This document shows positions 883 through 1,603 of a DNA stretch of 15,304 nt, piece by piece (within the stretch, counting starts at the first letter, position 1; the number at the start of each line of letters is the position of its first letter). A program made the translations under genes and the position numbers. The stretch comes from a virus (taxonomy: Duplodnaviria; Heunggongvirae; Uroviricota; Caudoviricetes), in the IMG/VR virus record IMGVR_UViG_638341087_000005; one strand, given 5' to 3'. The notes below the pieces were generated by a model. That model had not been told where the DNA came from. It searched no databases and was given only the letters and a program-made list of their open reading frames with translations.

Positions 883-911
883 ACAAAAAAGCCCGCCTGA
901 ACCGGCGGGCT
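883..911 (-). terminator. rho-independent terminator downstream of lom
   Basis: 8-bp GC-rich stem AGCCCGCC (890-897) / GGCGGGCT (904-911) with 6-nt loop. On the minus strand the hairpin is followed by a U6 tract (complement of the A-run at 885-890). Lies between the lom stop (938) and the stf start (873). Confidence 0.6.
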
Positions 912-937
912 GTCATAACACTGTGTTACCTGGCTAA

Positions 938-1537
938 TCAGAACTTATAACCGACACCCACGATGAAACCGTCAGTGCGCCAGTCGCCACTGCCGGAGCC
1001 TTCATAAGCAATATCAATGGCCACGGATTCGGTCGGGTTAAACTGCACGCCAGCTCCCCACGCCAGAGACGTGTTGCTGTGGCGACCGTCATCACTTCCG
1101 GTCAGCACGTCGTGCGTTTTCCCCTTGTTGTCAGTTACGCGGAGATAATCCCCGGAGAAAGTCGACACACGGCTGTAAGCCACACCCGCCATCGCATACG
1201 CGCTGAACCATTCATTCACGCGCACAGACGGCCCCACCATCACGCTGAACCAGCGGTTACGCACGGAATCTTCATGCCAGCGGGTATCGCTGTAACGGGT
1301 AAGCTGGCGATTCTTGTCTCCTGCATAGCTGAATGACGTCACCAGCCCCAGTGTGTCCGTAAACTCATAACGGTATTTCACGTTAATCCCGTTNAGATCA
1401 TCGCTGCCGGGAACGTTCGTCGAGGCATGAAGATACCCCGCGCTCAGCGTGGACTGATGTTCAGANGCCCATGCAGGCGCACCGGATACGGCCAGACAAA
1501 TGGCTGCGGACAAAATGGCGGCATAAAGTTTACGCAT
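938..1537 (-). CDS. lom: outer membrane protein Lom (Ail/Lom/OmpX family beta-barrel), prophage moron
   Basis: 199-aa ORF with an N-terminal signal-peptide-like segment ([23 protein letters not shown]), C-terminal ...GVGYKF ending in aromatic F as is typical for outer-membrane beta-barrels, and overall resemblance to lambda Lom. SD GAGAGG upstream of the ATG at 1537. Position directly after J is as in lambda. Confidence 0.9.
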
Positions 1538-1561
1538 AATTACCTCTCGCTTTTCTGCAAT

Positions 1562-1585
1562 AAAAAAGGCGTCATTTCTGACGCC
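1562..1585 (-). terminator. rho-independent terminator between J and lom
   Basis: Stem GGCGTCA (1568-1574) / TGACGCC (1579-1585), loop TTTC. On the minus strand the hairpin is followed by UUUUUUA (complement of the A-run at 1562-1567). Confidence 0.55.
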
Positions 1586-1603
1586 CGTTNTGGGTTATAA
1601 AAT

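Follow-up and report, generated by a model that had tools for sequence, protein, structure and literature searches.

A moron is an added gene that carries its own promoter and terminator, deviates in G+C content, and is expressed from the repressed prophage (PMC3594210, PMC3851460). The original sense of the term goes back to extra genes in the distal tail operon such as gp22 and gp23 of phage HK97 (NC_002167), around which putative terminators are marked in the annotation of Juhala et al. 2000; these genes are located in the gap between tail genes I and J, not after J, and HK97 itself has no lom, i.e., J is followed by stf. In the LF82 prophage Tritos, J is followed by a tail-fibre gene across a 60-nt gap. 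That lom belongs to this family of genes, is located between J and stf, and counts as an accessory gene of prophages is textbook knowledge on lambda, and the gene is annotated in thousands of E. coli genomes. Its product shares an 8-stranded beta-barrel family with Ail (Yersinia), OmpX (E. coli), and Rck/PagC (Salmonella), whose genes are chromosomal or plasmid-borne and have their own regulated promoters. The literature on adhesion and serum resistance concerns lambda Lom and Ail (PMC3594210), that is, other alleles than the one studied here.

Two other settings of Ail/Lom genes provide useful reference points. In the short-tailed Stx phages (933W, Stx1 phage, phi24B, POCJ13; "LomW"), the lom gene is of the same family (~40% identical) and has a strong terminator directly downstream, as in the locus studied here, but is preceded by >100 nt of AT-rich DNA with no terminator within 110 nt upstream; it is reported to reach much the same level in the lysogen as during induction (PMC3342100) and fits the classic moron layout better than the lom described below. 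In the Providencia phage PSTRCR_117lys (L085, 711-1367), an Ail/Lom gene is found in antisense orientation between I and K of the tail operon; the DNA upstream of it is AT-rich, and a promoter-like site precedes its start codon by 13 nt. It is an independent acquisition of the family at another place of a tail operon and also fits the moron definition better. The microRNA-size RNA 24B_1, which is reported downstream of lom in phi24B, belongs to the short-tailed context with its 428-nt lom-downstream region, and its authors state that it is absent from the analogous region of lambda (PMC4426718); the lom-stf gap here is 64 nt, and we rejected 24B_1 as a candidate for this locus.

Here, we analysed a 15,304-nt stretch of DNA (IMG/VR record IMGVR_UViG_638341087_000005; the window, hereafter) in which a preliminary description had read lom as a classic moron layout. 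Our best explanation is a different one, namely, that lom is a cargo gene at the far end of a lambdoid late operon and not an autonomous promoter-plus-terminator cassette.

Genes of the window and their relatives

The window represents the head-tail (late) region of a lambdoid prophage, on the minus strand, with the gene order D, E, tail genes, I, J, lom, and the start of stf (Table 1). J likely starts at the GTG codon at 4996 (the mechanical ORF extends to a TTG at 5047), its first 15 residues aligning with MGKGSSKGHTPREAK, which we take to be the N-terminus of lambda J, and its stop codon occupies 1606-1604. The last ~150 codons of J (about 1604-2060) constitute a divergent receptor-binding domain, recognizable in the GC profile and in the identity profile against lambda, and this domain and the gap that follows it make up a stretch of low G+C content (45-48%). 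The G+C content of lom (55-58%) is similar to that of its neighbours (52-62% for stf and about 60% for the body of J), that is, the gene does not show the differing base composition of a moron. The window contains 36 N positions (e.g., 1394, 1466, 1590, 1785, and 1904), two of which fall in lom codons (1466 and 1394, resulting in two ambiguous residues) and one in the stretch from the J stop codon to the upstream hairpin, while the stems and T runs of both hairpins are free of N bases.

Table 1. Coordinates of the features at the J-lom-stf locus of the window
Feature	Coordinates	Strand	Basis and remarks
J, tail-tip host-specificity protein	1604-4996	-	six gpJ Pfam domains including Ig_GpJ_C
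lom, Ail/Lom family, 199 aa	938-1537	-	ATG 1537, stop TGA 940-938; PF06316
stf (side tail fibre), 5' part, runs off the window end	1-873	-	ATG 873; Pfam phage_tail_N 1-133 and Collagen
Upstream intrinsic-terminator motif (J terminator)	1559-1586	-	hairpin scan, folding, covariation
lom leader, 21 nt, GCAGAAAAGCGAGAGGTAATT, Shine-Dalgarno GAGAGG	1538-1558	-	sequence
Downstream intrinsic-terminator motif (lom terminator)	885-911	-	hairpin scan, folding, conservation
Conserved motif TATAACCC, between J stop codon and hairpin	1592-1599	-	kept across related copies

The lom product matches Pfam Ail_Lom (PF06316) over its full length (residues 1-199 of 199; E 1.5e-118; 394 bits vs. a cut-off of 23) and, among PDB sequences, matches lambda Lom (9wso_C; E 6e-48) as well as OmpX and Ail (E ~1e-17); NCBIfam adds matches to Rck and OmpX, both under the family cut-offs. 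By eye from the translation, the signal peptide ends ...APAW(X)-SEHQ, with X denoting an N-masked codon, and the C-terminus, ...VGVGYKF, is the aromatic beta-signal expected in outer-membrane proteins. The product is accordingly predicted to be the precursor of an 8-stranded outer-membrane beta-barrel. It shares 46% identity with lambda Lom overall, with the C-terminal ~35 residues being identical. The assignment of the gene to the Ail/Lom/OmpX family in the preliminary description, as well as its placement between J and stf, is thus borne out, the former by the full-length PF06316 match and the latter by the Pfam domains of both neighbours. Chain C of PDB entry 9wso is lambda Lom (206 aa) in a solved structure; a literature search on 9WSO found no paper and no identity for the complex.

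Close relatives of the locus are common. Positions 600-2600 are 99.4-99.5% identical to prophages of E. coli O121:H19, with the remaining differences being mainly the N positions of the window, and positions 700-2000 are 98.5% identical to phage CP-1639 and many Stx-converting phages; that is, O121 prophages, CP-1639, and long-tailed Stx1a/Stx2a phages are 98-99.5% identical to the window over the J 3' end, lom, and the stf 5' end. A match was found in 4916 of 5426 complete E. coli genomes and covered at least 80% of the query in 1927, and the annotation at the matches reads gpJ, Ail/Lom family outer membrane beta-barrel protein, and prophage tail fibre N-terminal domain protein. In the window's own lineage lom follows J in 146 of 149 copies, and a search of these 149 copies for members that lack lom found none, three being broken after the leader.

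Lambda itself (18903-19650; J-lom-stf/orf-401) has the same gene order as the window, with gaps of 60-66 nt and a hairpin followed by a T run in both. Its lom end, lom terminator, and stf start are 92-96% identical to those of the window, and the downstream hairpin is nearly identical. Between ~2060 and ~1050, on the other hand, identity to lambda is 40-60%, a block that takes in the receptor-binding domain of J, the J-lom gap, and all of lom but its last fifth, vs. at least 90% on both sides of the block. Since the divergent block extends from ~2060 to ~1050, the terminators do not bracket the exchanged unit.

Terminator motifs on either side of lom

The upstream hairpin is formed by GGGCGTCA and TGACGCCT (1586-1567) around a GAAA loop and is followed by the tail TTTTTTATT to 1559, and the downstream hairpin is formed by AGCCCGCC and GGCGGGCT (911-890) around the loop GGTTCA and is followed by the tail TTTTTTG, with the T run extending to 885. 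With stems of 8 bp each (5 and 7 G-C pairs, respectively) and loops of 4 and 6 nt, both correspond to intrinsic terminators as we defined them (a G+C-rich stem of at least 5 bp, a short loop, and a U-rich tract within 2 nt). Minimum free energies were -13.6 kcal/mol for the upstream hairpin (z -3.9; 0 of 200 shuffles equalled it) and -18.2 kcal/mol for the downstream one (z -3.1; 1 of 200 shuffles was as good). Neither hairpin has a T run on the opposite strand, and therefore both are one-directional. Hence, the two intrinsic terminators that the preliminary description had placed around lom on its own strand withstand closer analysis, being canonical hairpins with a T run that fold far better than shuffled sequences: the downstream one, given as 883-911, is found at 911-885 and provides the terminator of its own expected of a moron, and the upstream one, given as 1562-1585 and about 23 nt before lom, was correct to a few bases (1586-1559, with a 21-nt leader). 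No Rfam family matched at the gathering threshold anywhere in the window, and the E-value mode applied to 800-5400 returned only sub-threshold chance matches, including Trp_leader at 883-965 (21 bits vs. a cut-off of 41); with no match above threshold, the hairpins do not represent a known RNA family.

To evaluate conservation, about 190-215 copies of each gap were taken from IMG/VR contigs. Among the ~190 copies of the upstream gap, the stem occurs in three main states (GCGTC/GACGC, GCGCC/GGCGC, and GCACC/GGTGC), in which two pairs differ on both sides, i.e., G-C to A-U and C-G to U-A, representing two compensatory pairs. Pairing was preserved in 95.6% of the cells, compared to 32-60% when the partners were slid (20 distinct variants), none of 500 shuffles reached the observed covariation score, non-matching arms were found in <5% of the copies, and the T run that follows is nearly invariant. 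This covariation among related sequences supports, but does not prove, a selected structure. The 62 nt after the lom stop, in turn, showed 37 sequence variants in 214 related copies, the hairpin being retained in all but a few of them; here, changes in the stem are one-sided or fall in the loop, that is, there is conservation without covariation. The stf start codon lies 11 nt past the T run of the lom terminator, with the stf ribosome-binding region abutting the terminator, and therefore the phage must read through it in order to express the side fibres.

The variant of the upstream stem follows the J 3' allele, and invariance begins only at the T run; because the hairpin varies along with J and not with lom, it is best named J's terminator. 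The LF82 prophage Perceval illustrates this: aside from the N positions, it differs from the window by a single base between the T run and the start of stf, lom included (its Lom is 98.5% identical by tblastn) but carries another J 3' allele and the GCACC/GGTGC variant of the stem, which places the joint between the J allele and the lom module in the upstream hairpin. In lambda, the upstream hairpin has a different sequence (CGTCCG-GGAA-CGGGCG-TTTTATTAT) and a shorter stem (6 bp; -9.7 kcal/mol). The leader was unchanged in 143 of the 149 copies that had been anchored only on the J 3' end, and is combined with three signal-peptide alleles of lom and with at least four J 3' alleles that are abundant and diverge from one another. 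In the stretch from the J stop codon to the hairpin, the motif of Table 1, (T/C)ATAACCC in the family, was retained in all variant classes but one (25 classes, ~190 copies of the J-lom gap), while the bases flanking it vary; the sole class without it is the disrupted copy L065. The motif occurs once in the window and is absent from the J-lom gap of lambda. In a speculative reading, motif and hairpin together could serve as an attenuator under regulation or mark where a small RNA derived from J ends. Breaks by unrelated DNA, probably insertions, were seen at three IMG/VR loci, in the 5' arm of the upstream hairpin (L065) and in the lom leader (L154 and L212).

Terminator-like sites are more numerous in the window as a whole than expected (25 vs. 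12.1 +/- 3.9), and the five top-ranking ones all belong to the coding strand. Hairpins as good as those around lom are found after E (13551-13531) and before J (5070-5047), which, with the putative terminators of HK97, points to terminators inside the late operon as a general feature. Such hairpins are thus not special to lom.

The gaps after E (13531-13551, with a T run) and after D (14616-14637, without a good T run) contain coding-strand hairpins that are among the five best. The gap between I and J (4997-5240) is also worth describing; it measures 244 nt with 46% G+C, vs. 60 nt in lambda. Its minus-strand hairpin at 5047-5070 (10 bp, -18.6 kcal/mol, z -4.9, T-rich tail) is located 51 nt before the J start and comes after the stop of a spurious 99-aa ORF, not that of I, which ends at 5241; by its predicted fold it at least equals both lom-flanking motifs in quality, and the I-J gap of lambda has nothing like it. 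On the plus strand, antisense to the operon, the gap has a promoter-like TTCACA-16-AATAAT at 5108-5135 (10 of 12 matches), followed by a hairpin and T run at 5210-5234. The predicted RNA would be about 90 nt long, with no ORF and a fold of -21 kcal/mol (z -3.3); no Rfam family matched it, and in related phages the region varies and mostly lacks annotation. A small antisense RNA is one possibility and a "reverse moron" another; HK97 carries its morons, one of them reverse, in the same gap.

Promoter search and published expression data

A two-hexamer test for sigma-70 promoter-like sites returned none on the minus strand in all 15.3 kb. A looser position weight matrix (PWM) scan gave only weak sites upstream of lom, inside J at 70-500 nt from the gene and with poor -10 or -35 hexamers; no site was found within 70 nt of lom, and none was shared between J alleles. 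Several PWM scores in the J 3' end are nevertheless in the top 0.1% of the window, e.g., TTGACC-18-CAGTGT at 1926-1897 and TNCACG-16-TATTTT at 1786-1759, and consensus scans of this kind miss weak, activator-dependent, or alternative-sigma promoters. We also considered and rejected three specific candidates: a promoter in the leader or over the T tract, where the T tract of lambda continues into TATTAT, a -10-like hexamer, whereas the window has no such hexamer, its TTTATT/TATTGC being without the key A2/T6 positions; a sigma-54-like TGGCGC...TTGCA seen by eye, which has a spacing of 8 instead of 5 and lacks the GG in the window's variant; and the TATAAC of the conserved motif as a -10, for which no J allele has a -35 at 15-19 nt.

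The 21-nt leader is too short for a promoter, and the statement in the preliminary description that there is no promoter space between the upstream terminator and the lom start is therefore confirmed. Of the two ways out that it had offered, a promoter in the J 3' end or terminator read-through, the latter fares better, and such read-through most likely depends on Q and takes place in the lytic cycle. A promoter in the J 3' end is unlikely because the identical leader joins at least four divergent J alleles that share no promoter-like site, and because any transcript starting there would also meet the conserved terminator. That is, lom does not show a promoter of its own upstream, considering the 21-nt space, the lack of a sigma-70-like site, and the lack of one conserved across J alleles.

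The one published transcriptome found for this lom module is that of Perceval, which carries the same module (PMC9928086 Table 1, S1 Table). In LF82 lysogens lom was at background in five conditions, which include LB, DMEM, and macrophages: it received 0-8 raw reads in each of ten libraries, and its mean normalised count in LB was 10.7, compared to a background median of 7.1 and a moron-calling cut-off of 35.6, i.e., 1.5x the prophage background vs. the 5x cut-off (PMC9928086). In the same data cI was 11-fold over background, bor reached up to log2 11 in macrophages, and seven Perceval morons were called, lom not being one of them (PMC9928086). Going by these data, which cover five conditions in one strain and a J 3' allele that differs from the window's, lom is not expressed from the repressed prophage as a moron would be (PMC9928086). 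A separate observation concerns the tail-fibre gene just after lom and the following genes in Perceval (locus L209), which reach log2 5-7 in macrophages with lom at the floor (PMC9928086 S1 Table); these reads may come, e.g., from a promoter located in lom or in stf, or they may cross-map with the prophage Tritos.

For lambda, the record is mixed. Expression of lom in lysogens has been reported repeatedly (Reeve and Shaw 1979; Chen et al. 2005, PMC1151598; PMC7067206), another study reports it as not detected (PMC2147009), and strong expression in the lytic cycle is reported by Liu et al. 2013, as cited in PMC9836094. The svsR paper contains nothing on the J-lom-stf locus. The comparison with lambda lom expression that had been suggested earlier thus gives a divided answer, with the lambda allele expressed or not detected depending on the report, and the window's module at background in Perceval. 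The classic moron layout, on the other hand, does not hold up: of its promoter, terminator, deviant G+C content, and lysogen expression, only the downstream terminator was found.

Proposed transcription of lom with the late operon

In lambdoid phages, Q-modified polymerase starting at pR' reads through the late operon; the window includes neither Q nor pR'. We consider it reasonably probable that lom is transcribed late, together with J and stf, by this polymerase, and is kept off in the lysogen by the J terminator and the lack of a promoter. According to this model, Q-modified polymerase from pR' would, after induction, pass every intrinsic terminator in the operon and place J, lom, and stf on one late message, from which Lom would be translated by means of its own strong ribosome-binding site, its signal peptide then directing it to the outer membrane. 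As long as the prophage is repressed, unmodified polymerase starting in the tail genes would be halted at the hairpin and T run that end J, and lom would be off, or nearly so, with only 21 promoter-less nucleotides between the J terminator and its ATG; the lom terminator would play for stf the role that the J terminator plays for lom. Termination at the hairpins and Q-dependent read-through are the steps that we infer here; the gene, the two motifs with their conservation and covariation, the lack of a promoter motif, and the published lysogen RNA-seq are observations described above.

We favour this late-operon model because both motifs are canonical and fold far better than shuffled sequences, because stf can be expressed only by read-through of the lom terminator and comparable hairpins occur elsewhere in the operon, because the upstream stem is kept by compensatory changes and its T run is nearly invariant, because lambda keeps a hairpin and T run at both places despite its diverged J-lom gap, and because the minus strand has no sigma-70-like site and Perceval lom is at the lysogen background; the strong expression reported for lambda lom in the lytic cycle is a further reason. 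What counts against it are the reports of lysogen expression of lambda lom, the different J 3' allele of Perceval, and the AT-richer J 3' end with its high PWM scores. An alternative is a hidden promoter, weak or activator-dependent, in the J 3' end that drives lom in the lysogen at a low or conditional level, with the hairpin serving as an attenuator; it would fit the lysogen expression reported for lambda lom (PMC1151598, PMC7067206), the AT-richer J 3' end with its high PWM scores, and the AT-rich upstream regions that Ail/Lom relatives have elsewhere. However, no candidate site passes the standard two-hexamer test, none recurs in the various J alleles that precede this lom, all of them lie upstream of a strong, selectively maintained terminator, and LF82 lysogens show only background expression of this lom module, and we thus regard such a promoter as unlikely.

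It is also conceivable, if somewhat less probable still, that the hairpins act mainly at the RNA level: by stabilising 3' ends or delimiting processing, they would determine how much J mRNA there is relative to lom and stf mRNA once the long Q-dependent transcript has been cleaved. Hairpins do occur in several gaps (those that follow E, J, and lom, and the one before J), Q-modified polymerase would in any case not stop at them, and a ribonuclease might cut at the conserved A/U-rich motif that precedes the J hairpin. Yet a stabiliser needs no U tract and the T runs are nearly invariant; moreover, such a role is compatible with termination of unmodified polymerase and is thus an addition more than an alternative to the late-operon model. 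Finally, the coincidence of the upstream hairpin with the mosaic joint of J alleles and lom module, and the few hybrid copies with mismatched arms, might suggest chance or neutral remnants of old recombination joints without present function. We find this very improbable, given z-scores of -3.1 to -3.9, pairing that is preserved by compensatory changes, mismatched hybrids in <5% of the copies, and the retention in lambda of a hairpin and T run at both sites despite sequence divergence.

The late-operon model may be extended to the function of Lom. Llp of T5 and Cor of phi80/N15 mask receptors or prevent re-adsorption of progeny to debris. One might speculate, at a level that we still consider doubtful, that in this widespread lineage lom is not a lysogenic-conversion gene but a Q-dependent late gene, silenced in the lysogen by the J terminator, whose product has a lytic-cycle role at the outer membrane; if so, the fixed position of lom right after the J receptor-binding domain would reflect this lytic role, e.g., receptor masking or the avoidance of re-adsorption to debris.

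The common view of lom as a lysogen-expressed moron is based on the allele of lambda itself. Many lambdoid prophages, Shiga-toxin prophages among them, carry the other allele, for which the sequence (an upstream terminator and no promoter) and one transcriptome point to silence in the lysogen. Before Lom is held to contribute to adhesion or serum resistance in such strains, or is used as an antigen, its expression there should therefore be verified.
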